From NCBI GenBank assembly GCA_024278765.1, contig JAJRSM010000034.1:12051-76050 (forward strand): 64,000 bases of DNA. The letters are read 5' to 3'. The number at the start of each line of letters is the position of its first letter. Within the stretch, counting starts at the first letter, position 1. The DNA is from Deltaproteobacteria bacterium (lineage in GTDB: Bacteria; Desulfobacterota; GWC2-55-46; DRQE01). Below, one piece after another: positions 6,872 to 46,590 of the stretch. The position numbers and the translations under genes are program-made. Under the pieces are notes generated by a model. The model was not told the DNA's origin. It made no database searches and saw nothing but the letters and a program-made list of their open reading frames with translations.

Positions 6872-7555
6872 TTGGAGACTATATATAGAAAAGAAATAAT
6901 GCCTGGAGGAATTCTTCAGGTGGCGCGTGAGGGCTATCCATTTATATTGATAGCCCTTGCTCTTAATGTGCTTACTGGCTGGTTGGAGATTTACTGGCTC
7001 TTTGGTATAACCTGCGTTCTTACGGCATGGGTCGTCTGGTTCTTCAGGGATCCGGTTAGGCAGGTGCCATCGGGTGGGGCTTGGACTATAGTGAGCCCTG
7101 CGGACGGCGTGGTCATTAAGGCCGAGCCTGTGCAGGAAGATAAGCTGCTGAATGCCGAGGTCATTAAGGTCAGTATCTTTATGAACGTATTTAATGTACA
7201 TGTCAATAGGACTCCGATATACGGACGTGTTTTAAAGGTCGTTTATAGCCCGGGAAAGTTCTTTAACGCGAGCTTTGATAAGGCTTCGCTTTATAACGAA
7301 CAGAACGCGATACTTATGGAAGGCTACGGCGGTCGTCGCATCGTATTTACTCAGATCGCGGGGCTTGTCGCGCGGCGTATAGTATGCCGCGCTAAAGAAG
7401 GTATGGAGCTTAACTGCGGAGAGCGTTTTGGTCTGATTCGGTTTGGATCAAGGCTTGATGTATACCTGCCGCTTGATACGGAGATAGCCGTTAAGGTTGG
7501 TGATAAGGTAAGGGCTGGCACTAGTATTATCGGACGCTGGCAACAGGTACAGTGA
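6872..7555 (+). CDS. psd: Phosphatidylserine decarboxylase proenzyme (short, archaeal/delta-type Psd)
   Basis: 227 aa; the self-cleavage 'FGSR' (GS) motif sits in 'LIRFGSRLDVYLP'; N-terminal TM segment. The TTG start at 6872 is uncertain and an ATG at 6899 is also possible. Confidence 0.75.
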   Translation: METIYRKEIMPGGILQVAREGYPFILIALALNVLTGWLEIYWLFGITCVLTAWVVWFFRDPVRQVPSGGAWTIVSPADGVVIKAEPVQEDKLLNAEVIKVSIFMNVFNVHVNRTPIYGRVLKVVYSPGKFFNASFDKASLYNEQNAILMEGYGGRRIVFTQIAGLVARRIVCRAKEGMELNCGERFGLIRFGSRLDVYLPLDTEIAVKVGDKVRAGTSIIGRWQQVQ

Positions 7556-7558
7556 CCT

Positions 7559-8359
7559 ATGATAGATCGAGACGTAAGCAGGCGAAGGTCTAAGAAAAGA
7601 AGAGACGGGATGAAGAAGGGGGTATATCTTCTTCCAAATCTATTGACTTCGGCGAGCCTTTTTGGTGGTTTTTACTCTATTGTCGCAGCTCTGGACGGCA
7701 AGTACGAGATCGCGGCTATCGCAATACTTATCTCTGCCGTGCTGGATTGTCTGGACGGGCGAATAGCAAGGCTTACCGGTACTACGAGTCGTTTTGGTAT
7801 GGAGTATGACTCGCTTGCCGATCTTGTCGCATTCGGATTGGCTCCGGGGTTTCTGATATTTGTCTGGGCTGTTCGTCCCTTTGGCAGGTACGGCTGGCTC
7901 GCGGCCTTTTTGTATGTCGTCTGCGGTGCGTTGCGTCTGGCGCGTTATAATGTCGAGGCTCCGAGCGTTGGTAGCAAGCGTTTCAATGGCCTGCCGATTC
8001 CGGCTGCAGCTGCATTTATCGCGGCGACCGTATTGCTCTTTCACTATATCGGGCAAGGCCAGATCCCAAAGCATATAGCCATACCTGTTATAGTTTATTG
8101 TCTGGCGTTTTTGATGATAAGCAATGTTAAGTTTCACAGTTTTAAGGAGCTTAACTTTACCAAGAGAATGCCCTTTATACTTTTGGTTGGTGCGGTCTTT
8201 TTATTAATACTTATTGCGGCCGAGCCGCAGGTTATGTTGTTTATCTTGACCTTTGGCTATGTTGTCTCAGGCCCTGTAATGTGGATTGTCGGTAAGCGTA
8301 AGAAAGAAGTCAGCTACGTCCATGATGACGACGAAGTCGTAGCCAAAAAAACCAAATAA
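7559..8359 (+). CDS. pssA: CDP-diacylglycerol--serine O-phosphatidyltransferase (CDP-alcohol phosphatidyltransferase family)
   Basis: 266 aa multi-TM protein with the CDP-OH-P-transferase motif '[28 protein letters not shown]'. Confidence 0.8.
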
Positions 8360-8376
8360 AAAAAGAGAGTTGTGAT

Positions 8377-9918
8377 ATGAGTGAGTTGGTAAGGATATTT
8401 GATACCACACTTAGAGACGGCGAGCAGTCGCCCGGGGCCTCGATGAATGTCGAGGAAAAGCTCCGAGTGGCTCATCAGCTTGCACGTCTTGGTGTTGACA
8501 TTATAGAAGCGGGTTTTGCAGTTAGCTCTCCCGGTGACTTTGATGCGGTACGCCGAATCGGCCAAGAGGTCGAAGGCCCGGTGGTCTGCTCCCTTGCGCG
8601 TGCCATTGCAAAGGACATCGATGTTGCATGGGATGCACTAAAAGGTGCGTCAAAGCCTCGTATTCATACATTTATTTCGACCTCTGATATTCACTTGAAG
8701 TATCAGTTTAAGCTCTCCAGAGACGAGGCCTTAAAGCGTGCCGTAGATATGGTAACGCATGCAAAGGGTTACGTAGATGACGTAGAGTTTTCTCCGATGG
8801 ATGCTTCACGCACAGAAGAGAGCTATCTTTTTGAGGTCTTGGAGGCCGTAATAGAGGCCGGTGCAACGACCGTGAATATCCCTGATACCGTTGGCTACGC
8901 TCTGCCAAAGCAGTTTGGCGAGCTTATAAAAGGGATAAAGGAAAAGGTCCCTAATATCGATAAGGCCGTTATATCGGTTCATTGTCATAACGACCTGGGC
9001 TTGGCAGTTGCCAATGCCTTAAGTGCCGTAGTAAACGGCGCTCGTCAGGTCGAGTGTACGATAAACGGAATAGGCGAGCGTGCAGGAAACTCTTCACTTG
9101 AAGAGATAGTTATGATACTTAAGACCAGAAGAGATCTGCTGGACCTTGATACATTAATTAATACAGAGCAGATAATCGCATCCAGTCGCTTGATAACAGG
9201 CATAACAGGGATGACCGTCCAGCCGAATAAGGCGATAGTCGGAGCAAATGCCTTTGCCCATGAGTCGGGTATTCATCAGGACGGGCTTTTAAAAGAAAAG
9301 ACTACCTATGAGATAATGAGTCCCGAGTCGGTTGGGCTCTCTAAATCAACTCTAGTCCTTGGTAAGCACTCGGGGCGTCATGCCTTTAGGACCAGACTTG
9401 AAGAGCTTGGCTATAACTTAACGGACGGCGAAATTAATAAGGCCTTTGAACGTTTTAAATCTCTGGCAGATAAAAAGAAAGAAGTCTTTGATGAGGATTT
9501 AGAAGCGATTGTACAAGACGAGGTCTTAAGCCTTGCCATACCTGAACGGTATAAGATCGTTAGTCTTACAATTGAGAGCGGTACTGAGTCTCAGCCGCAT
9601 GCCTTGGTCCAGTTGGAGGTAGACGGCTCGCTTAGAAGGTTTGAGGCTGTGGGTGACGGTGCTGTAGACGCCGCCTTCCGTGCGATTGCGAATGCTACAG
9701 GTACTGGGAGTAAGCTCTTGCATTACGCGGTAAATGCCATAACCGGCGGCACCGATGCGCAGGGCGAGGTCACGGTTAGAATCCAGGAGCGTGAGGATAT
9801 CGTCATTGGTCAAGGTGCGCATACCGATATTATAGTCGCCAGCGCAAGGGCCTATATAAATGCTCTAAACAGGCTTGAGCATAAAAAGAAGCAGGGTGAT
9901 ATGCTGGACTTATTCTAG
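8377..9918 (+). CDS. leuA: 2-isopropylmalate synthase
   Basis: 513 aa; '[17 protein letters not shown]' HMGL-like signature and the LeuA dimerisation/regulatory C-terminus. Confidence 0.95.
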
Positions 9919-35180: not shown

Positions 35181-36182
35181 GTGCCGGATACATTTAACAG
35201 GAAAGATCTGCTGGGAATAGAAGACCTCTCAGTAGAAGAGATAGTAAAGATACTCGGCTCTGCCGCCTCTTTTAGAGAGGTCGCCGAGCGTGATATCAAG
35301 AAAGTCCCGACGCTTCGGGGCAAGACGATCATTAACCTCTTCTACGAACCGTCTACGCGCACACGTACCTCATTCGAGATCGCAGCGAAGCGGATGAGTG
35401 CTGATGCGATAAATATCGCCGTAGCCTCTAGTTCGATAAAAAAGGGCGAGACTCTGAAAGACACGGCCCTGAACCTAGAGGCGATGAGCCCTGACTGTAT
35501 AGTCGTTCGTCACGGGTCTTCGGGTACACCGCAGATGCTTGCCAGATATCTTAAGTGCAGCGTTATAAATGCCGGCGACGGCCTGCATGAGCACCCTTCT
35601 CAGGCCCTGCTCGATATGCTTACCGTCAGTAACAGGCTCGGTGGTATTGAAAAACTGGACGGGTTAAGGATTCTTATTGTTGGCGATGTTGCCCACTCTA
35701 GGGTGGCTCGTTCTAATATACTGGGTTTTTCTAAGATGGGTGCGCATGTTACGGTCTGCGGCCCGCCTACGATGATCCCCGTGGGGATAGAGCATCTGGG
35801 CTGTGATGTTAATCACGATATGACGGCTGCCGTAAAGGACGCCGATGTTGTTATGATGCTAAGGCTTCAGTTAGAGCGTCAGGCGGCAGGGCTCTTTCCA
35901 TCACCCAGAGAGTACGCAAAACTATACGGCCTTGATAGCCTAAAGCTTAAGAGGGCTAAAAAGGATGTTATTATTCTGCATCCAGGGCCGATCAATCGTG
36001 GCCTTGAGATCTCCCCTGAAGTCGCCGACGGCCCCTGGTCGCTGATCTTGGAGCAGGTCGCAAACGGGTTGGCCGTAAGGATGGCGTTGTTTTACTTGTT
36101 GCTCGGAGGCGTAAAGGATGGCATTTCAAACGCCAATAAGAGCCTAAACCCTGATGGTGTGAGGCTCTTGAATCTAAGGTGA
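35181..36182 (+). CDS. pyrB: Aspartate carbamoyltransferase catalytic subunit
   Basis: 333 aa; 'STRTRTSFE' and 'HPSQAL' carbamoyltransferase motifs. GTG start. Confidence 0.9.
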
Positions 36183-36189
36183 AGAATTT

Positions 36190-37497
36190 ATGAAAAGATT
36201 ACTATTAAAAGGCGGCAGGGTACTAGACCCTTCGCGTTCGGTCGATGGCCTCTATGACGTTATAGTCTTTGGCGGTAAGGTAGCTTCGATTAAGGCCTCG
36301 GATGATCAGGCCTCGCCAAGCGAGGCCGAGACAGACGCGGGTTGGGAGGGTATTGATTGTGCGGGACTTTTGATCGTCCCGGGTCTTATCGATATACATA
36401 CGCACCTGCGCGAGCCGGGCTTTGAGTATAAAGAGACGATAAAGACCGGCACCGAAGCAGCCGTTGCCGGAGGTTTTACGACGATCCTGTGTATGGCGAA
36501 TACCGAGCCTATAAACGACAATGGCTCGGTAAGCCGTTTTATAGTTAGGCAGGGGCATGATCTGAAGCTTGCAAATGTCCTGCCGATCGGGGCCGTGACC
36601 ACTGGTTTTAAAGGCTCGCAACTAACAGAGATGGCAGAGTTGCAAGAGGCCGGGTGCGTAGCCCTCTCTGATGATGGTCTACCGATAACCGATGCGGCTA
36701 TTATGCGTCGTGCTCTGGAGTACGCAAAGGGGCTTGATCTTACCGTTATCAGCCACGCCGAAGAGCCTGCGCTTGTAGCAGGCGGTGCTATGCACGAGGG
36801 TGATGTCTCAACAAGGCTTGGCCTTAAGGGGATACCATCTGAAGCAGAGTCAGTGATGGTGGCCCGGGATGTTCTTTTATCCGAACTTACCGGAGGCAAG
36901 CTGCATGTTGCGCACGTAAGCACCAAAGGTGCACTCGATATAATCCGTGAAGCAAAAAAACGTGGCGTAAACGTAACGGCAGAGGCCAGTCCGCATCATC
37001 TGATGCTTACCGATCACGCCGTCTCTGATTACGGCACTGAGTTTAAGATGAACCCGCCGCTTCGAGCCGGTGATGATAGAGCTGCGCTTCGCGCTGCTAT
37101 TAAGGACGGAACAATAGATACGATAGCGACCGATCACGCACCGCATTCTTCGATTGAAAAAGACGTCGAATTCGATAGTGCCGCAAATGGCGTGGTTGGG
37201 CTAGAGACCTCGCTTGGCGTAGTCTTGAGGCTCGTTGATAAAGGTGAACTGACGCTTGCTGAGGTTATAAGGGCTATGACGATAAATCCGGCGATTGCGA
37301 TGGGTCTTGAAAAAGGCACTCTGCAAGTCGGGCGTGACGCAGATATTACGATAATAGATCTTAATAAAGAATGGACGGTCGAGCCGGAAAACTTTAAGAC
37401 AAAAGGGCGCAACACCCCCTTTGCAGGATGGAAGCTAAAGGGCCGTGCCATAAGAACGATAGTCGGCGGGCGTACCGTCTTTGAACTCATTGCGTAA
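36190..37497 (+). CDS. pyrC: Dihydroorotase (multifunctional-complex type)
   Basis: 435 aa amidohydrolase; 'DIHTHLREPG' metal-binding motif. Confidence 0.85.
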   Translation: MKRLLLKGGRVLDPSRSVDGLYDVIVFGGKVASIKASDDQASPSEAETDAGWEGIDCAGLLIVPGLIDIHTHLREPGFEYKETIKTGTEAAVAGGFTTILCMANTEPINDNGSVSRFIVRQGHDLKLANVLPIGAVTTGFKGSQLTEMAELQEAGCVALSDDGLPITDAAIMRRALEYAKGLDLTVISHAEEPALVAGGAMHEGDVSTRLGLKGIPSEAESVMVARDVLLSELTGGKLHVAHVSTKGALDIIREAKKRGVNVTAEASPHHLMLTDHAVSDYGTEFKMNPPLRAGDDRAALRAAIKDGTIDTIATDHAPHSSIEKDVEFDSAANGVVGLETSLGVVLRLVDKGELTLAEVIRAMTINPAIAMGLEKGTLQVGRDADITIIDLNKEWTVEPENFKTKGRNTPFAGWKLKGRAIRTIVGGRTVFELIA

Positions 37498-37925
37498 CCA
37501 CCTGCGGTGGGGCTAAGTCCAGTAAGTGAGTTCCAGAGCAGCACGTAGTAATAAATTAAATTGATGGATTGGCAGTGCGCAGTACCTGTGTGAGTTAAAG
37601 CAACTTCGTCACAGTAGTAATTATATTTTACTGTCATTGCGAGGAACAGAAGCCCCGAGCATAGCGACGGGGTCTGCGACAAAGCAATCTCGTTTTGTTT
37701 GGAGGCAAACCTTCAGGTTTGCATGTTTACAGGGTTGACTGGTTTAGTGAATTGTCATTGCGAGGAACGTAGGGTCTAAGACCCGTAGAGACGAAGCAAT
37801 CTAGTATTTACTACCCCCTTTGAAAAGGAGAAATTTAAGGGGATTTGAAAGTAGGGCAAGGCTTTAGCTTTGCTTTACTATAAAGCAAAGTAATAAAGTA
37901 AAAACAACGGAGATTATTTTTAGAT
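37498..37925. repeat. Intergenic repeat cluster between pyrC and carA. Contains stop-adjacent CACCTGCGGTG element copy B (37498-37570), two copies of 'TGTCATTGCGAGGAAC-hairpin-GACGAAGCAATCT' (about 37630-37695 and 37753-37810), and a 'GTAGGGCAAGGCTTTAGC' segment shared with 10170-10192.
   Basis: Read directly. Element order and sequence parallel the leuA-leuC spacer. Confidence 0.65.
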
Positions 37926-39059
37926 ATGAAAGAACGTAAAAAAGCAATGCTTGTATTATCGGACGGAACGGTCTTTGAGGGTTATTCTTTAGGCGCGGTC
38001 GGCGAAGCACCGGGCGAGGTCGTCTTTAATACCTCGCTTATGGGTTATCAGGAAATCTTGACCGATCCGTCGTATAAGGGCCAGATAGTCACGATGACCT
38101 ATACCGAGCAGGGAAACTACGGGGTGAACCTTGAAGACATCGAGTCTTGCAAGCCATGGGTAAGCGGCTTTATCGTAAAGCAGGCCTGCGCCTACCCGAG
38201 CAGTTGGCGTAACAATAAAAAAGGCGGCATGACGCTCGACGCATATCTTAAAGAGAGCAATGTCGTTGGTATTGAAGGTATAGATACCCGTGCGCTTACT
38301 CGTCATATCCGCAAAGAGGGAGCAATGCCAGGCATTATATCTTCGGTTGACCTTGATGCAGAGAGCCTCTATAAGAAGGCCATGGCGATACCAACGCTCG
38401 CCGGGCAAGACCTCGCAAAAGAAGTCACCTGTAAAGAACCATACCAGTGGACAGAAGGGCTCTGGGATATGGAGAATGGGTATTGCGAAGACTCGGAAAA
38501 ACCAAAATATAAAGTCGTTGCCTTTGACTTCGGAATAAAATTTAATATTCTGCGCTCGCTCGTCAGTACTGGCTGCGAGGTGACGGTCGTCCCTGCCAGC
38601 ACTACGGCAGCAGAGGTTATGGAGATGAACCCGGACGGGATTTTCCTCTCTAACGGTCCGGGCGATCCCGAGCCCGTAGACTATGCACAGAAGACGATTA
38701 AGGAACTCATAGGTAAAAAGCCAATCTTTGGAATATGTCTTGGTCATCAGCTGCTGAGCCTAGCCCTTGGCGGCAAGTCATTTAAACTCAAGTTCGGCCA
38801 TAGGGGCGGTAACCAGCCCGTGATGGATCTGACGACTAGGAAGGTCGAGATAACCTCGCAGAACCACGGCTTTGCAATAGACGCAGACTCGATGGAGGGG
38901 CTCGCCGAGCTTACGCACATCAACTTGAATGACAAGACCGTTGAAGGGATTCGTGGTGAGGCCAGAAAATTATTTACGGTACAGTACCACCCCGAGGCCT
39001 CTCCCGGCCCACATGACTCGCATTACCTCTTTAAGAGGTTTACCGATATGATGGGGTGA
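37926..39059 (+). CDS. carA: Carbamoyl-phosphate synthase small (glutaminase) subunit
   Basis: 377 aa; CPSase_sm_chain N-domain plus class-I GATase ('GICLGHQLL' catalytic Cys, 'HPE'). Confidence 0.9.
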
Positions 39060-39100
39060 GGGGTTGATAAGTTTTACCTTAACTAGATTTGGAGGTTACT

Positions 39101-40189
39101 ATGTCTAAAAATTTGATTGATATTGAAGAGGCAACTTATCAAGAGGACGACTGCGATGAAGTGCCACCTACAGATATAGTAGCTTATAATGAACTACGTT
39201 CTTGTGCAGACCTTTTTAGGATGCAAACGAAAGGTATGTTAGATATAAAACCAGAGTTTCAGAGAGAGGTTGTATGGAAGAAACCAGCACAAACTCGTTT
39301 TATTGATTCACTTATGAAAGGATTGCCAATTCCTAGCATGTGTTTTAGTTTTGACCATAAGACACAAAAGTGGCAAGTGATAGACGGCTTGCAAAGAATG
39401 TATACTATTATAGCGTTTTTATCAGGATCAATAGGAACTTTATCTAAGCTGAACGATATAGATCAGAGAATTTCTGGCCAGCCTTTCTATAAATTTGAAG
39501 GTGTTGATTCAGAGTTGTATTCCTATCTTACTCGTGTTGAAAATTTAACTTTGCCAATTACTGTTTTGAGATGTGATTATAGCAAGAGAAGTCATATGGA
39601 ATATCTTTTTACTATATTTCATAGGTTAAATGCTGGAGGAATGAAGCTTAACAATCAGGAAATTAGGAACTGCATATTTAGCGGTAGTTTTAATCGTTTG
39701 CTAAATGAGTTAAACGATACTAGTAGTTGGTTGAAAATAAATAGGATTAAAAAAAGTGTGGGGCATCGTTTCACTAAACAAGAGTTGATTTTAAGGTTTT
39801 TTGCTTTTTACGATTCTTATAATAACTATGATGGAAAACTTGCACGTTTTTTGAATTATTATATGGAGGATAACAGGAATCCTAGTGATGAATTTTTAGC
39901 GAATAAGAAAGAGATTTTTCAGCAAACAGTTGACGTGCTGAATGTGAATATCTTTCAAGGAAAAGTGCCTCCTAAGCTAGGTATAACAGTGTTAGAAGCA
40001 CTACTTCTTGGGGTTGCTTTTAATCTTCGAACTATTAGAAAAAAGTCTGATTCAGAGATTAATGCAATGTACTTTAAAATATTGCATCATGAAGAATTTT
40101 CAGAGAATAAACTCATGGAAGGAATCTCACAGAAGTCAAGAGTACAAGGGAGAATCAAAGCAGCAAAACAAATATTTTCTGGTAAGTAG
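39101..40189 (+). CDS. DUF262-domain protein (GmrS/ParB-like NTPase-nuclease superfamily N-terminal domain)
   Basis: 'KPEFQREVVWKKPAQTRFIDSLMKGLPIPSMCF' and 'VIDGLQRMYTI' match the DUF262 signature (YQR..W ... IDGQQRLTT). GGAGG RBS 6 nt before ATG 39101. AT-rich relative to flanking carA and carB. Confidence 0.75.
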   Translation: MSKNLIDIEEATYQEDDCDEVPPTDIVAYNELRSCADLFRMQTKGMLDIKPEFQREVVWKKPAQTRFIDSLMKGLPIPSMCFSFDHKTQKWQVIDGLQRMYTIIAFLSGSIGTLSKLNDIDQRISGQPFYKFEGVDSELYSYLTRVENLTLPITVLRCDYSKRSHMEYLFTIFHRLNAGGMKLNNQEIRNCIFSGSFNRLLNELNDTSSWLKINRIKKSVGHRFTKQELILRFFAFYDSYNNYDGKLARFLNYYMEDNRNPSDEFLANKKEIFQQTVDVLNVNIFQGKVPPKLGITVLEALLLGVAFNLRTIRKKSDSEINAMYFKILHHEEFSENKLMEGISQKSRVQGRIKAAKQIFSGK

Positions 40190-40191
40190 AT

Positions 40192-40695
40192 ATGATAGTC
40201 AAAGGCTATATTCGTGATAATTTAGACAGGTTGGAGAACCTATATTATGTAGATTCAGCTGGTCTTGCTGGATTTCTTTACTCTAAATTGGCAATTCTTG
40301 AGCTCGGTGGTTGGGCTGAAGAGTCAATGGAAGATATTGTTTTGAGGCATGCAAAACGTCATCTAAGAAAGGAGCTTAAATTTAATAGTTTTAAGAAATA
40401 CCATGTTGATAAAAACCATGGTTTTCATTACGAGAAAAACTTTTTCGTAATGTTAATAAAACTTATTGGCATTGTCAATGTTGAGCGCATTGAAAGAAAG
40501 ATTGATTTGTTAAGATTTGACCAGATGAAGTCAGCCTTAAGTACTCTTAAGTACAGTCGTAATAGTTTAGCACATACGCACACTAAGGGAATTACTGTAA
40601 CTATAGATACACCATCTATAACGAAGAAATCTTTCGTGCGTATATTAGAAGGTTTTAAAGAGTTTGATAATATTTTAAGAACTTTAAGTTTCTAA
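40192..40695 (+). CDS. Small HEPN-like protein (Rx4H motif; resembles the MAE_28990/MAE_18760 HEPN-like nuclease family often found beside DUF262 genes)
   Basis: 167 aa, predicted helical; 'SRNSLAHTH' near the C-terminus is an Rx4-6H HEPN-type motif. The start codon is 2 bp after the DUF262 stop. Family assignment is by recollection, not by search. Confidence 0.45.
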   Translation: MIVKGYIRDNLDRLENLYYVDSAGLAGFLYSKLAILELGGWAEESMEDIVLRHAKRHLRKELKFNSFKKYHVDKNHGFHYEKNFFVMLIKLIGIVNVERIERKIDLLRFDQMKSALSTLKYSRNSLAHTHTKGITVTIDTPSITKKSFVRILEGFKEFDNILRTLSF

Positions 40696-40731
40696 TATCG
40701 ACTAAGTTTATATAAAAAGGAGCTTATAACT

Positions 40732-43700
40732 TTGCCAAAACGTACTGACATAAAAAAGATATTATTAATCGGCTCTGGTCCAATCGTAATCGGGCAGGCC
40801 TGCGAGTTTGATTACTCCGGTACGCAGGCCTGCAAGTCGCTTAAAGAAGAAGGCTACGAGGTTGTCTTGATAAACTCGAATCCGGCGACGATTATGACCG
40901 ACCCGAACCTTGCTGATAAGACCTATATTGAGCCGCTCTCAGCCGATATGATCGCAAAGGTAATCGAGCGAGAACGTCCGGATGCTCTGCTGCCGACGAT
41001 GGGCGGTCAGACCGCTCTGAACGTAGCGATTGAGCTTGACGAGATGGGCGTCCTTGAGAAGTTCAATGTCGAGCTGATCGGTGCTGGCATCGAGGCGATA
41101 AAAAAAGGCGAAGATAGAGAGCTATTTAAAAAAGCTATGGAGCGTATCGGACAAAAAGTCCCAAGCGGCGGCTTTGCAACTACATTCGATGCTGCATGCA
41201 AGGTCGTCGAGCAGTTTGATTACCCTGTGATCGTAAGGCCGTCTTTTACCCTTGGCGGCACAGGCGGTGGTATCGCCTATAACCGTGAAGAGTTTGAGAA
41301 GCTCGCAAAGCACGGAATAGACGCAAGTCCGACTGACGAGATACTTATAGAAGAATCGGTGATTGGTTGGAAGGAGTTTGAGCTGGAGGTAATGCGCGAT
41401 ACCAAGGACAATGTCGTAATTATCTGCTCGATTGAGAATCTAGATCCGATGGGCGTGCATACAGGTGATTCGATAACCGTTGCTCCGGCGCAGACCCTCT
41501 CGGATAAAGAATATCAGCTTATGCGCAACGCGTCTCTGGATATTATTCGAGAGATCGGCGTTGATACCGGCGGCTCTAATATACAGTTCTCGGTCAATCC
41601 AAAGACAGGTGGTATATATGTTATCGAGATGAATCCGAGGGTCTCAAGGAGTTCTGCTCTGGCCAGTAAGGCAACCGGCTTTCCGATAGCCAAGATCGCT
41701 GCTAAGCTCGCCGTTGGTTATACCCTCGATGAGATACCAAACGATATAACAAAGATGACGCCAGCGTCATTTGAGCCGACGATTGATTATGTCGTAACAA
41801 AGATTCCTCGTTTTACCTTTGAGAAATTCCCGCATGCCGACTCTGTCTTGACCACCCAGATGAAGAGCGTTGGTGAGGTTATGAGTATGGGGAGGACCTT
41901 TAAAGAATCATTTTTAAAGGCTCTGCGTTCCTTAGAGACAGGCGTTTCAGGGCTTGACCCGATTGTGCGCAAAGATCGCTCGGAGGTCTTTTTTGAGGTT
42001 ACAGAGGAAGAGGCCGAGGAGATCTCTACGAACCTGAAGGTCCCAAGGGCCGAGCGTATGTACTACGTTGCCGATGCCATGCGTTCCGGTATGACTGTGG
42101 AGAAGGTTCATGCCCTGACAAATATTGATATGTGGTTCTTAAATAATATACGAGAGATCGTCGAGCTTGAGGGTGAGTTATACGAGGAAAGTAAAAAAGG
42201 CGAGTTGACTAACGCCTCGATACGTGCGGCAAAGGAGTCTGGTTTTTCTTACACAACGCTTGCGCGTATTACAGGCGAGGCAGAGTCGGCTATAACAGCG
42301 CGTGCGCACAAGGCCGGAATCAGGCCAGCGTATAAGTGTGTCGATACCTGCGCTGCTGAGTTCGAGGCACATACGCCGTATCTCTATTCTACATATGAGC
42401 GGCCTTTCTATAATATAAAAGACAAGACCGAACCAGCAGTCGAGTGCGAGGCAGCACCGACCAGGAATAAAAAAGTAATGATTCTTGGAAGCGGTCCGAA
42501 CCGAATCGGTCAGGGTGTTGAATTTGATTATTGTTGCGTCCATGCAAGCTTCGCCCTTAAAGAAGAGGGCATTGAATCGATAATGCTCAACTGTAACCCA
42601 GAGACGGTATCGACTGATTACGATACCTCTGATAGGCTTTATTTTGAGCCGCTTACCTTTGAAGATGTCATGGCCGTCATAGAACGAGAAAAGCCCGACG
42701 GCGTTATCGTACAGCTTGGCGGGCAGACCCCGCTTAAGTTATGCGTAGCTCTCGAGCGTGCAGGGGTGAAGATCCTTGGCACTACGCCTGACTCAATAGA
42801 TGAGGCCGAGGATAGAGAACGTTTTGATGCGTTATTAGAGAAGCTGAAGTTAAGACGACCCGAGAGCGGGCTTGCGCGTAGCACAGAAGAGGCCGTAGCT
42901 GCTGCAAATAGTATTGGATATCCAGTTATGGTAAGGCCGTCTTACGTGCTTGGCGGTCGGGCAATGGAGATCGTCTTTAACGAAGATAGCCTCAATGAAT
43001 ATATGGCGCGTGCCGTGCAGGCCTCGCCCGAGCATCCTGTGCTCGTCGATAGATTCTTAGTAGGGGCAACTGAGGTTGATGTCGATTGCGTAAGCGACGG
43101 CGATCTTGTAGTGATCGGAGCTATCATGGAGCATATAGAAGAGGCCGGTGTCCATTCCGGCGACTCGGCCTGCTCGTTACCACCGTACTCACTTAGCAAA
43201 GAAAGTCTAGCAGAGATTACGAGGCAGACCAAGGCACTGGCAAAAGAGCTAAAGGTTGTTGGTCTTATGAATGTTCAGTTTGCGGTAAAGGACGAGGTGA
43301 TCTATATCATAGAGGTCAATCCGAGAGCCTCCCGTACCGTACCGTTTGTCAGCAAAGCAATAGGGCGTCCTCTGGCCAAGATCGCAACGAAGGTTATGAT
43401 AGGTAAGACATTAACTGAGCTTGGCTTTACCAGGCAGATCCATCCGCCGTACGTCTCTGTCAAAGAAGCTGTCTTTCCGTTTATAAAGTTCCCGGGTGTT
43501 GATACTATTTTAAGCCCAGAGATGAAGAGCACCGGTGAGGTGATGGGTGTTGGTGACGGCTTTGGCAAGGCCTTTGCAAAGGCGCAGATAGCCGCCGGTA
43601 ATACCCTGCCGCTTGTGGGTAATGTATTTGTAAGTGTCAGAGATGCTGATAAAGAAGGGGTCTTGCATGTTGCCAGAGAATTAAAAGAGATGGGTTTTAA

Positions 43701-44040
43701 TATCCTGGCGACGCGCGGTACGGTACGGTTTTTGGCCGAGCATGGCGTAGAGACCGAGTATGTTCATAAGGTAAATGCAGGGCGGCCTCATATCGTAGAT
43801 GAGATAAAAAGTAAAAAGGTTGCGATGGTTATTAATACATCCTTTGGCGCAAAGAGTGTTGCTGATTCTTACTCTATTAGGCGAAGCTCGATAGAGAATG
43901 GCGTGCCGTACTTTACTACCATCGCCGGTGCGCATGCAGCGACTCGCGGCATAAAGGCAAAGAAAAAAGAAGCCCTCGATGTTATGAGTCTTCAGGAGTA
44001 TCACGAGCAGAACGAGGCTGCGATAAAGGCCTCGCTCTGA
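40732..44040 (+). CDS. carB: Carbamoyl-phosphate synthase large subunit
   Basis: 1102 aa; duplicated ATP-grasp halves, oligomerisation domain, MGS-like C-terminus. TTG start after an AAGGAG RBS. Confidence 0.95.
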
Positions 44041-44421
44041 AAAATTGAATTTTCTCTCTTAGAGTTTTAGGTTGTAAATAATTTAAAAGATAGATATTGA
44101 CTGCTTGCAGTGGTGTTAAAGGCTGTAGGTAGATATAGCACTGCGAGTAGTAATAAGTTATATAGATTGATCTATTCGTACGCAATACTCTGAAACAAGT
44201 TCAGGGTGACAGGTTTTGTAGTTAGTGTGTACAGGCGTAAATAGGCATTGGTTTGTTTTATGATAATTAAATTTTCAATATGTCATGCTGAATTCAGTTC
44301 AGCATCTGTCTTTAAGATTTCGATAACAGTAGATCCCTAAACAAGTTAAATCAGGGTAAGAGTCGGAATAGAATGTTAAACTTCTAAATTCACAGAGGTC
44401 TTCTTTTGAGGAGTACCTTTT

Positions 44422-46590
44422 ATGCAATCCATCAATAGCGTTTTTCAAGGTCAGGGCATTACTAAGTCTCTTCAATATGTGAAGGGTATTGGCCCAAAGC
44501 TTGGCGAACGCCTTGCCAAGAAAGGCCTTACTACGATTGAAGACGCTCTGTATTTTCTTCCTATTAGATATGAAGATAGAAGCCTTATGAGCTCGATCCG
44601 TGATCTTCAGGTCGGCACAAGTGGCGGAGCTACCGGTGAGGTTATGGTAAGCGGCGAGGTTCGTTACGGCAGGCGCAGGGGCTTTGAGGTCGTTATAAGT
44701 GACGGTACCGCCATTCTTAAACTCAAGTGGTTTAACTTTAAACTCCAATATATAAAGGGTCGTTTTAAGCAAGGCACAAAAATAAAAGCCTTTGGTAATG
44801 TCACGGCCTATGGTGCGCAGAAAGAAATTATCCACCCTGACGTCGAGGTGGTCGCAGCCTCAGGTGATGACGACCTTCTGAAAACCTCTGGCGGCAACCT
44901 TGCAGGCGGCCTTGCAGGTGGCGGCCTTATTCCAGTATATTCTCAGATCGATAACTTTCATCAAAAGACAATAAGGAAAATCATAGATAGTATCGTTCTT
45001 GATTATGCAGCCGGGTTGCTTGGTGCTGTGCCTCGTGGCGTTTTGGCTGCAAGAGGCCTTTTAACTCTTGGCGAGTCTTTTACCAAGGCCCATTTGCCAG
45101 TGGCGATGGACGAGGTAGAGCTTGCCAGACGAAGTATAGTTTTTGATGAGCTCTTCTCGTTGGAGCTAGGCCTTGCGTTAAAGAGGCGAGCCATCAAAAA
45201 AGAAGGCGGCCTTGTTCAAGCCGGTGGTGACGAGACTGTTTTAAAAAAGCTTGGCGAGCTTATTCCATTTGAATTGACGCAGGCTCAGAGGCGTGTCTTA
45301 AAAGATATAAAGCGTGATATGAGATCGGATCGCCCTATGAACCGGCTTTTGCAGGGTGATGTCGGGAGCGGTAAGACCATCGTCAGTCTTATCGCAGCAC
45401 TTATCGCAATAGACTCCGGGCATCAGGCGGCGATTATGGCACCGACCGAGATCTTAGCCGAGCAGCATTATCTTCTGATTCACGGTTACGGAGAAGGGCT
45501 TGGGATAAAGGTACGGCTCTTAACAGGAAGTACAAAGAAGGCCGTGCGGGCAGAGTATCTGCACGAGATAAAGGCCGGTAATGTCGATATTGTCGTCGGT
45601 ACACACGCGCTTATTCAGGGTGACGTAGAGTTCAGGAGTCTTGGCCTTGCTATAATCGACGAGCAGCACCGCTTTGGCGTCGAGCAGCGTAGTTTTTTAC
45701 AGAACAAGGCGCGTAAGAGCCGAGACGGTAAGGTAGGTCTTACCCCTGATATTCTGGTTATGACGGCGACCCCGATCCCAAGGACTTTATCTATGACGGT
45801 CTTTGGAGAGCTCGACGTCTCGGTAATCGACGAGTTGCCAAAAGGGCGCCAGCCGATAGAGACTCGCCTTATGCGTGAGGCCGAGCGCCAAGAGGCTTAC
45901 GGCCTGATTCGTAGAGAACTGGAACGAGGCTCTCAGGCCTATCTAGTCTATCCTTTGGTGGAAGAGAGCGAGGAGTTAGAACTGCGTGACGCCACTAGGA
46001 TGCATGCGCATCTGGCAAAGGATATTTTTCCGGAATATAAAGTAGCCCTTTTGCATGGTCGTATGAAGGGTGCGGAAAAAGAAGCCGTTATGGCCGACTT
46101 TAAGGCCGGTCGTTTTGATATCCTCGTCTCGACGACGGTTATAGAGGTTGGTGTGGATGTGCCGAACGCTACCGTAATCCTAATTGAACACGCCGAGCGT
46201 TTTGGCCTTGCGCAGTTGCATCAGCTCAGAGGTCGCGTTGGGCGGGGTTCTCGTCGTTCTGTTTGCATATTGCTTGCGCAGTATACCCGCAACGAAGATA
46301 CTTGGAAACGGCTTAAGGTAATAGAGCGGACGACCGATGGTTTTTTGATAGCTGAGGAGGATTTGAAAATAAGAGGCCCTGGCGACTTTATTGGGACGCG
46401 CCAGTCCGGGATGCCGGATTTTCGCAGCAGTGATACATTCGCAGATCTCGGTCTTCTGCGTGACGCACGGGCCGATGCAACGGCCTTTCTCGAATCAGAC
46501 CCGGAGCTTACTACCCCAGAAGGTCAGCGAATAAAAGAAATACTTCGCCATAGGTGGCGCGATAGGCTCTCGCTTGCAGAGGTAGGGTGA
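44422..46590 (+). CDS. recG: ATP-dependent DNA helicase RecG
   Basis: 722 aa; wedge/OB domain then SF2 helicase ('GDVGSGKT', 'DEQHRFGV'). Confidence 0.9.
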   Translation: MQSINSVFQGQGITKSLQYVKGIGPKLGERLAKKGLTTIEDALYFLPIRYEDRSLMSSIRDLQVGTSGGATGEVMVSGEVRYGRRRGFEVVISDGTAILKLKWFNFKLQYIKGRFKQGTKIKAFGNVTAYGAQKEIIHPDVEVVAASGDDDLLKTSGGNLAGGLAGGGLIPVYSQIDNFHQKTIRKIIDSIVLDYAAGLLGAVPRGVLAARGLLTLGESFTKAHLPVAMDEVELARRSIVFDELFSLELGLALKRRAIKKEGGLVQAGGDETVLKKLGELIPFELTQAQRRVLKDIKRDMRSDRPMNRLLQGDVGSGKTIVSLIAALIAIDSGHQAAIMAPTEILAEQHYLLIHGYGEGLGIKVRLLTGSTKKAVRAEYLHEIKAGNVDIVVGTHALIQGDVEFRSLGLAIIDEQHRFGVEQRSFLQNKARKSRDGKVGLTPDILVMTATPIPRTLSMTVFGELDVSVIDELPKGRQPIETRLMREAERQEAYGLIRRELERGSQAYLVYPLVEESEELELRDATRMHAHLAKDIFPEYKVALLHGRMKGAEKEAVMADFKAGRFDILVSTTVIEVGVDVPNATVILIEHAERFGLAQLHQLRGRVGRGSRRSVCILLAQYTRNEDTWKRLKVIERTTDGFLIAEEDLKIRGPGDFIGTRQSGMPDFRSSDTFADLGLLRDARADATAFLESDPELTTPEGQRIKEILRHRWRDRLSLAEVG

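Follow-up and report, generated by a model that had tools for sequence, protein, structure and literature searches.

PD-T4-2, the described system closest to the locus studied here, is listed as 'DUF262, HEPN' by Vassallo et al. (2022; PMC9519451). In that study, the system was functionally selected, cloned into K-12 and validated against T4, and its deletion in the native strain ECOR65 restored plaquing of T4 (PMC9519451). Only for the E. coli prototype has phage protection been described, namely against T4 and further T-even phages (PMC9519451). The operon association of the RiboL-PSP-HEPN family with ParB had already been noted in 2013 (PMC3710099). In the literature search, no paper was found that reports for any member of the PD-T4-2 family that it cleaves RNA, that A and B form a complex or what triggers it.

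For other systems used in the comparison, the ParB-DUF262 plus ParBDB architecture of NsnA has been proposed as a DNA sensor (PMC12065111), and the DGQQR motif was assigned a role in NTP hydrolysis (PMC10952713). In DARNA, an ssDNA signal activates a HEPN tRNase (bioRxiv 10.64898/2026.02.22.705581). MAE_28990 HEPN operons include ParB and DNA methylase genes (PMC3710099), and the PD-lambda-5 entry, as given in Table S1 of Vassallo et al., reads 'ParB/HEPN, methyltransferase'.

In the window, i.e., the whole 64,000-nt stretch of DNA that was analyzed, carA and carB are separated by a 1.67-kb AT-rich insert (39060–40731) with two genes, which is very probably a horizontally acquired anti-phage defence cassette of the PD-T4-2 type. 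The cassette is a clear homologue and a new copy of this known system in an unusual place. The following features were located, all on the forward strand:

37926–39059, + strand: carA, small subunit of carbamoyl-phosphate synthase (CPSase), upstream host gene (Pfam CPSase_sm_chain, 1.3e-50; GATase, 3.9e-53)
39060–39100, + strand: left junction and cassette leader, 41 nt, starting directly 3′ of the TGA stop of carA
39101–40189, + strand: gene 1, PD-T4-2A homologue, 362 aa, with a ParB/Srx-fold DUF262 domain at the N-terminus followed by a helical domain at the C-terminus
39251–39277, + strand: PEFQREVVW motif (residues 51–59), conserved N-terminal motif of the DUF262 domain
39383–39397, + strand: DGLQR motif (residues 95–99), the variant in this family of DGQQR, the nucleotide-binding motif of DUF262/ParB-like NTPases
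40192–40695, + strand: gene 2, PD-T4-2B homologue, 167 aa, predicted all-helical, assigned to the RiboL-PSP-HEPN family, presumed RNase effector
40558–40575, + strand: Rx4H motif (R123-N-S-L-A-H128), HEPN catalytic signature
40696–40731, + strand: right junction, 36 nt, AT-rich and part of the insert, defined by the sequence and the alignment with the closest relative found (L001)
40732–44040, + strand: carB, CPSase large subunit, downstream host gene (Pfam CPSase_L_D2, 1.8e-112, and related families)

The insert is richer in AT than both flanks, as the first-pass annotation had noted, with a GC content of 0.333 compared to 0.489. Among all 1.6-kb stretches of the window the cassette represents the GC minimum (z = −5.8), and the GC content at third codon positions is likewise low, with 0.284 and 0.292 for the two cassette genes compared to 0.50–0.58 for pyrB, pyrC, carA, carB and recG. 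In the alignment with the empty site of L001, homology stops at the carA stop codon and starts again at TGCCAAAACG of the carB start. The start codon of carB is TTG here and ATG in L001, and the carB ribosome binding site AAAGGAG (40716–40722) comes from the inserted DNA. The leader contains a GGAGG ribosome binding site for gene 1 (39090–39094) and is too short for a long promoter region. Terminator-like sites were found neither between carA and gene 1 nor after gene 2, and the promoter scan was uninformative because of the AT-rich DNA. Neither a promoter nor a terminator is obvious in the cassette itself, which is probably transcribed within the pyrB-pyrC-carA-carB operon. Its orientation is that of the operon.

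The start of gene 1 was assigned to the ATG at position 39101, which is preceded by GGAGG at a distance of 6 nt; homologues are also 362 aa in length. The TTG at 39089 was considered as another start and found to be unsupported. The DUF262 signature reported earlier (PEFQREVVW and IDGLQRMYTI, the latter at residues 94–103) is present, and the Pfam search assigned the protein to GmrSD_N (PF03235, 3.5e-24). It also matches the PADLOC model PD-T4-2_A (PDLC04027; 1.1e-153, 509.7 bits), which covers residues 3–360 with profile positions 8–362 of 363. The PADLOC model NsnA matches residues 17–360 (1.1e-56). The helical C-terminal domain resembles that of NsnA and the middle part of BrxU. Among 25 homologues, P51, R55, E56, V58 and W59 of the first motif as well as the complete DGLQR are invariant, and IDGLQRM was identified in all 8 loci examined. 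Since the motif is DGLQR and the canonical form is DGQQR, NTPase activity of the gene 1 product is not assured. A search of PDB sequences with gene 1 gave nothing, and neither cassette protein matches an NCBIfam model at E ≤ 1. DUF1524 was not matched by gene 1 or gene 2 in Pfam at E ≤ 1, and the neighboring genes are carA and carB, so the claim that gene 1 is devoid of a DUF1524 HNH effector holds.

Gene 2 matches the PADLOC model PD-T4-2_B (PDLC04028) with 7.7e-53 (residues 1–164, profile positions 1–165 of 168), and two further PADLOC B models match as well. It had been described as a helical protein of 167 aa with an Rx4H motif, and the RNSLAH at residues 123–128 is indeed retained across the family: R123 and H128 are invariant in all 132 family representatives; E43 is likewise conserved in 100%, and E37, G40 and W41 in 99%. 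The invariance of the dyad argues for a catalytic role under selection and not for an inactive adaptor. The match to HEPN_RiboL-PSP (PF18735) has an E-value of 0.036 and a score of 14.4 bits, which is below the Pfam cutoff of 28.4, while 9 of 11 close homologues match this family with a best value of 9.3e-9. In the published HHpred analysis of the E. coli PD-T4-2B, HEPN_RiboL-PSP reached a probability of 97.8%, with MAE_28990 as second-best match (96.9%). The structure of gene 2 was predicted with a pLDDT of 87 and a pTM of 0.83. HepT toxins and other HEPN domains stood first in the structural comparisons, but in Foldseek against the PDB the top matches, HepT toxins, had E-values of at least 0.56 and no match was significant, and the gene 2 profile searched against PDB sequences gave only a chance match to a guanylate kinase. 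No match of gene 2 to the MAE_28990 family (PF18737) was found in Pfam at E ≤ 1. The earlier assignment to an MAE_28990-like family should be replaced by RiboL-PSP-HEPN; MAE_28990 is the second-best HHpred match of the E. coli protein, and its typical DNA methylase partner is absent here.

The tight coupling of the two genes, already pointed out before, was reproduced: the gene 1 stop and the gene 2 start are separated by 2 nt (TAG-AT-ATG), on the same strand with A upstream, and this junction is kept among the cassette loci. Seven other loci with the pair were found in unrelated contexts ranging from E. coli to uncultured, metagenome-derived contigs. In all seven, a B homologue with Rx4H near residue 123 lies directly 3′ of A, and in six of them the cassette stands alone among housekeeping genes without mobility genes. 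The E. coli pair has the same gene order and sizes and is located in a P4-like satellite, adjoining an integrase at ssrA; its B protein is named 'HEPN domain-containing protein' in RefSeq. The A and B proteins of the window are 51% and 36% identical to those of this pair, which comes from strain 2009C-3133 and may differ from the ECOR65 prototype. Across phyla, the presumed sensor A shows 60–67% and the presumed effector B 36–47% identity. Here A is the better conserved of the two, contrary to what is usual for defence systems. As a speculation, A might recognize an invariant ligand and B might diversify to escape phage inhibitors.

The proposal of a candidate anti-phage module with DUF262 and HEPN in two genes and without DUF1524/HNH is thus borne out, as both PADLOC PD-T4-2 models match over the full length. 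The same annotation had regarded the DUF262-HEPN pairing as experimentally uncharacterized. This was wrong, as the pairing is that of PD-T4-2, which was validated against T4 by Vassallo et al. (PMC9519451); as a novelty it is also already covered by the PADLOC models. The locus shares with PD-T4-2 an A protein of about 362–375 aa with DUF262, followed by a B protein of 167 aa with HEPN, the tight stop-start coupling and the DGLQR and Rx4H motifs. In contrast, the host of the window is an uncultured deltaproteobacterium-like lineage, and whereas the compared E. coli pair resides in a P4-like satellite, the copy in the window lies outside mobile elements, inside the pyrB-pyrC-carA-carB operon and behind a leader of 41 nt.

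With GmrSD, BrxU and SspE, gene 1 shares the N-terminal DUF262 (ParB/Srx-fold) domain. However, the DUF1524 His-Me/HNH nuclease domain of these enzymes is missing and the presumed effector is a separate HEPN protein; furthermore, they carry DGQQR and gene 1 carries DGLQR. Membership in GmrSD/BrxU was rejected for lack of DUF1524. The Menshen system (NsnABC) has the same NsnA-like architecture of ParB-DUF262 and ParBDB, and an RNase is the presumed effector in both. It differs by its ABC-ATPase transducer NsnB and by NsnC with its inPIN and effector architecture, neither of which is present here, where the system consists of two components with a stand-alone HEPN protein as presumed effector and the downstream genes are HEPN and then carB. 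Membership in Menshen was rejected in the absence of NsnB and NsnC.

The HEPN RNase systems HepT/MntA, DARNA/PD-T7-3, ApeA, HepS, AbiD/F and Csm6 have the Rx4H signature in common with gene 2, which is likewise predicted to fold into helices. Its partner, however, is a ParB/DUF262 protein and not an MNT protein, there is neither a fused sensor domain nor an RNA antitoxin, and at the sequence level gene 2 resembles the RiboL-PSP-HEPN family PF18735 alone. The cassette proteins gave no match to a nucleotidyltransferase domain, the partner of gene 2 being the DUF262 protein, and membership in HepT/MntA was rejected for want of the MNT nucleotidyltransferase. MAE_28990-type operons and PD-lambda-5 likewise associate HEPN with a ParB-like protein (PMC3710099, Table 1; Vassallo et al., Table S1), but no DNA methylase gene is present here and the best family is RiboL-PSP-HEPN. 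The MAE_28990 operon type was rejected, the cassette being without a methylase and without a Pfam match.

The closest relative found, L001, has a carA with 71% identity and a carA-carB spacer of 50 bp without insert. Among 185,579 species genomes no carA came closer than this 71%, and metagenome contigs reached 61%. Neither cassette gene was found in any of the 50 carA-carB loci surveyed. The absence from L001 and from all 50 loci indicates that the cassette was acquired horizontally, in agreement with the earlier suggestion, to which the foreign composition and the empty site of L001 also point. Universal presence with host-like composition had been named as the sign of a housekeeping role; this sign is absent, with the cassette in 0 of 50 loci and a foreign GC content. 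Regarding traces of integration, only short, chance-level matches were found for direct or inverted repeats flanking the insert, no conserved non-coding ends among 8 cassette loci, and no tRNA genes or Rfam families in the 64-kb window, i.e., none of these searches gave an integration signature. Collections of phages and plasmids yielded no more than remote DUF262 relatives with 25–30% identity, so no vehicle could be named.

That most bacteria have carA and carB side by side, as had been stated, could be retained in part. Of the 50 loci in which carB lies downstream of carA, 39 have a gap shorter than 600 nt, but many other lineages, among them Planctomycetes, Verrucomicrobia and cyanobacteria, have no carB within the 5–6 kb flank downstream of carA. 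The spacer had also been called a known insertion hotspot. The literature search did not confirm this, and the survey lends it limited support with inserts of more than 600 nt in 11 of the 50 loci, most of those examined containing housekeeping genes. In Neisseria the carA-carB intergenic region is large and variable. In one related MAG the insert consists of a probable type II restriction-modification pair of low GC content. This unrelated defence-like cassette in the same gap of a related genome hints at a small local hotspot. That carA-carB is, in this lineage, a recurrent integrase-free landing site for small AT-rich defence cassettes, which insert so precisely that the flanking genes stay intact and the cassettes are co-transcribed with an essential pyrimidine/arginine operon, is a speculative extension and rather improbable. 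If true, expression of the defence genes would be linked to nucleotide metabolism, and the cassette could not easily be lost.

The pair could also be mainly a selfish, toxin-antitoxin-like addiction module, in which the HEPN toxin is neutralized by the ParB-like protein and which persists because its loss kills the cell, with no real phage protection provided here. The tight coupling of the genes and the isolated position of the cassette, which lacks mobility genes at 6 of the 7 other loci, would suit such a module, and imprecise deletion from within an essential operon would come at a cost. We consider it improbable all the same, since the E. coli homologue protects against T4 both in K-12 and in the native strain (PMC9519451), and the place of an MNT antitoxin is taken by a ParB/DUF262 protein of 362 aa, as is typical of sensors in defence. 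Addiction and defence are compatible with each other. Finally, the insert could have arisen by misassembly of a metagenome-assembled genome, or its genes could be housekeeping regulators of carbamoyl-phosphate synthesis, which we regard as hardly credible. In favor of it, the window apparently derives from an uncultured organism with a best carA match of 71%, the exact proteins are recorded at NCBI from one contig of 80 kb, and the cassette runs in the direction of the operon and lacks a terminator. Against an artefact, the junctions are clean, with carA complete to its stop and carB complete from its start with a functional-looking ribosome binding site, and a chimeric join would rarely keep both genes intact. 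The absence from all 50 related loci and the foreign composition also speak against this explanation, and the occurrence of the same pair in unrelated contexts at seven other loci argues against any car-specific role.

The DNA of T4 is modified with glucosyl-hmC. As in GmrSD and BrxU, the DUF262 protein might recognize modified phage DNA, e.g., with glucosyl-hmC, and the pair would then be a modification-dependent, type IV-like restriction system with a DNA-acting effector and HEPN as adaptor or inactive protein. It would fit that T4 was the phage used to select the E. coli system (PMC9519451). Neither protein, however, has a DUF1524/HNH or other DNase domain and the Rx4H dyad is the same in every one of the 132 representatives, which leaves this reading with very little probability.

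For the preferred reading, a PD-T4-2-type defence system, it is likely that the ParB-like protein senses infection and that the HEPN RNase is the effector, and DARNA may serve, by analogy, as a working precedent for this sensor-effector logic. PD-T4-2A, with its ParB/Srx-fold DUF262 domain, DGLQR motif and helical C-terminal domain, would be the sensor or regulator, recognizing phage DNA or an infection-specific nucleic-acid state and coupling this recognition to NTP binding or hydrolysis. PD-T4-2B would dimerize to form a composite Rx4H RNase site and be kept inactive by PD-T4-2A until infection. Once active, it might cleave RNA (tRNA or mRNA) and thereby stop translation, which would keep the phage from being produced, while the infected cell would probably pay for this with its growth. 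By translational coupling over the 2 nt between stop and start, A and B could be made in a fixed proportion. With the cassette probably transcribed together with pyrB-pyrC-carA-carB, carB would be translated from its TTG by means of the ribosome binding site supplied by the insert. We infer the RNase activity and its target, the A-B complex, the trigger, the co-transcription with the operon and an abortive mode of action in preference to direct immunity.

The value of the finding lies mainly in annotation, as a false lead is removed because the DUF262-HEPN pairing is that of the validated PD-T4-2. In addition, this divergent member and the family data name targets for mutagenesis, namely the DGLQR motif of A and, in B, the residues R123, H128 and E43. 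For the family, a bare two-gene AT-rich cassette lands among the housekeeping genes of distant phyla without visible mobility genes. In the organism studied here, it is notable that the cassette, again with no mobility genes, is cleanly inserted into a pyrimidine operon that is essential.

The two ORFs that occupy the carA-carB interval, on inserted DNA spanning 39060-40731, were confirmed at the positions proposed in the first-pass annotation, and all motif strings quoted there were found. The gene order of the locus in the window is as follows.

35181-36182, forward strand, pyrB
36190-37497, forward strand, pyrC
37926-39059, forward strand, carA
39101-40189, forward strand, gene 1 (A), 362 aa, GGAGG ahead of the ATG
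40192-40695, forward strand, gene 2 (B), 167 aa, 2 nt between the gene 1 stop and the gene 2 start
40732-44040, forward strand, carB
44422-46590, forward strand, recG

No other stretch of the 64-kb window is as AT-rich as the insert, whose GC content of 0.333 compares with a mean of 0.475 for the window as a whole (sd 0.024; z = -5.8). The GC3 values of the cassette genes were 0.284 and 0.292, whereas those of five neighbouring genes ranged between 0.50 and 0.58. Long AT-rich intergenic regions are also located ahead of carA (37498-37925, GC about 0.41) and between carB and recG (44041-44421, GC about 0.35). No Rfam match was obtained for either of them, and both may be regulatory.

Both cassette proteins matched the PADLOC models of the E. 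coli anti-phage system PD-T4-2 over their full length (gene 1 to component A, 1.1e-153; gene 2 to component B, 7.7e-53). PD-T4-2 was recovered in a functional selection and is listed as "DUF262, HEPN" and validated in Table S1 of that study; in its HHpred table, PD-T4-2B is assigned to HEPN_RiboL-PSP (97.8%) and HEPN_MAE_28990 (96.9%) (Vassallo et al., 2022; PMC9519451). A 2023 review entered the system under DUF262 and also under HEPN PF18735 (PMC10952713), and RiboL-PSP-HEPN "in operon with ParB" had already been pointed out in 2013 (Anantharaman et al.; PMC3710099). The cassette thus belongs to PD-T4-2, a known and experimentally validated kind of system, and has no new architecture. Since both proteins match the published system, the suggestion that the DUF262-HEPN pairing lacks experimental characterisation was wrong; what had been proposed for the structure of the two genes was correct. 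The homologues in complete E. coli genomes lie together inside a P4-like satellite, with psu on one side and an integrase at ssrA on the other. The second gene of this E. coli pair is named "HEPN domain-containing protein" in RefSeq, and identity to the window proteins is 51% for A and 36% for B.

Gene 1 was identified as GmrSD_N/DUF262 by Pfam (3.5e-24) and no DUF1524 was detected in it, which identifies the product as a ParB/Srx-fold protein with part of a BrxU-like helical domain. Its DGLQR motif, a variant of the canonical DGQQR, was unchanged across 25 homologues. For gene 2 alone, the Pfam match to HEPN_RiboL-PSP was below threshold (E 0.036); the same model was matched by 9 of 11 close homologues (best 9.3e-9). 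The exhaustive profile search placed the relatives of gene 2 in 669 clusters at 50% identity, and nearly every relative among the matches listed is a stand-alone protein of about 165-170 aa. R123 and H128 of the Rx4H motif, together with E43, were conserved in 100% of 132 family representatives. The structure was predicted with confidence (pLDDT 87, pTM 0.83) and is all-helical. Profiles and catalytic motif lend good support to the HEPN assignment; the support from fold comparison is moderate.

Seven other loci with a gene 1 homologue were analyzed, from E. coli, a Blastocatellia MAG and contigs of uncultured organisms up to 2.4 Mb. Each of them has a B homologue directly after A, with its Rx4H motif near residue 123, and the stop-start junction measured 0-4 nt where gene calls were consistent. 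The cassette GC was below that of the ±4 kb flanks in 8 of 8 loci, window included, by 3.5 to 18 points. The pair stood alone among housekeeping genes in the six non-E. coli loci, with no adjoining integrase or transposase, and no conserved terminal sequences were found among the cassette loci. Curated phage and plasmid collections contained only distant DUF262 relatives (25-30% identity). The word-index search returned more than 4,300 A homologues; identity was 60-67% across phyla, falling to the 51% of the E. coli protein. B is far more divergent (36-47% among cassette loci). The presumed sensor is therefore more conserved than the presumed effector, although it is usually the sensors that evolve fast and the effectors that are conserved.

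The scan of 185,579 species representatives gave, as its best match to carA, a gene of 71% identity in a 'Deltaproteobacteria' MAG (L001), in which the carA-carB spacer is 50 bp. Homology to the window ends at the carA stop codon and restarts at the carB start. Neither cassette gene was found in any of 50 carA-carB loci from genome and metagenome scans. An assembly artefact or a housekeeping role is unlikely, given the intact junctions on both sides, the foreign composition of the insert, its absence from relatives and the occurrence of the same pair in unrelated contexts. No integration signature was recognized, neither flanking repeats nor tRNA genes nor conserved cassette ends. The 12-nt sequence TAACTTTGCCAA forms an exact direct repeat, with one copy within gene 1 (39546-39557) and the other across the carB start codon (40727-40738). 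A repeat of this kind is close to what chance would produce in 2 kb of sequence, yet the second copy lies exactly at the right junction.

The first-pass annotation had called the carA-carB spacer a known insertion hotspot. Literature confirmation was not found, and direct support is limited to gaps of more than 600 nt in 11 of the 50 loci and one defence-like insert. ORFs were inspected in seven of these 11 gaps, all from the genome scan. Housekeeping-type genes filled five: an S49-family (SppA-type) Peptidase_S49 gene of host-like GC in two Nitrospirota-type genomes (L016, 7055-8089; L041, 4036-5007), a radical-SAM gene (L003), an ABC transporter (L022) and genes resembling pyrG and purF (L049). 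Defence genes are therefore not the sole occupants of this gap. In a Nitrospinaceae-like MAG (L005, 7119-7991), it is filled by a 290-aa ORF without Pfam or PADLOC match and with a GC of 0.284 compared to about 0.36 in the flanks; a metagenome contig (L092) has a gap of identical length (884 nt) and GC. A different 1.76-kb insert (7149-8906; GC 0.386 versus 0.545 in the flanks) was found in another 'Deltaproteobacteria' MAG (L002, JAJCZG010000005.1; carA 65% identical). It consists of a 274-aa ORF (7178-8002) without Pfam or PADLOC match, overlapping a type II N6/N4 DNA methyltransferase gene (7980-8876; PF01555 1.5e-42, PADLOC MTase_II 4.4e-66), and is probably a restriction-modification pair.

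No published account of how PD-T4-2 works was found in the literature. By analogy to BrxU and SspE, whose DUF262 proteins are NTP-dependent switches reading DNA (PMC10952713), and to NsnA, the proposed DNA sensor of Menshen (PMC12065111), A is most likely a sensor or regulator. B would most likely be an RNase held inactive by A until infection, as suggested by HEPN defence RNases such as DARNA, in which ssDNA activates cutting of tRNA anticodon loops (bioRxiv 10.64898/2026.02.22.705581). A trigger, an A-B complex, an RNA target and either abortive or direct immunity would belong to this inferred scheme; the domain content, motif conservation and A-B gene coupling are observed. The lack of any DNase domain and the invariance of the HEPN dyad speak against a type IV DNA-restriction system. 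A toxin-antitoxin-like module that is purely selfish is the less likely reading, in view of the phage phenotype published for the homologue.

Only 41 nt precede gene 1 and no terminator-like site was found at either junction, so the defence cassette is probably transcribed together with the pyr/car operon. The carB ribosome binding site, AAAGGAG, lies within the inserted DNA (40716-40734, including the start codon), and carB starts with TTG in the window compared to ATG in L001. The insertion may have altered carB translation efficiency.

The remaining interest lies in the mechanism of the PD-T4-2 family, in the insertion of a bare cassette without mobility genes within an essential operon, and in a possible small hotspot for defence genes between carA and carB in this lineage.
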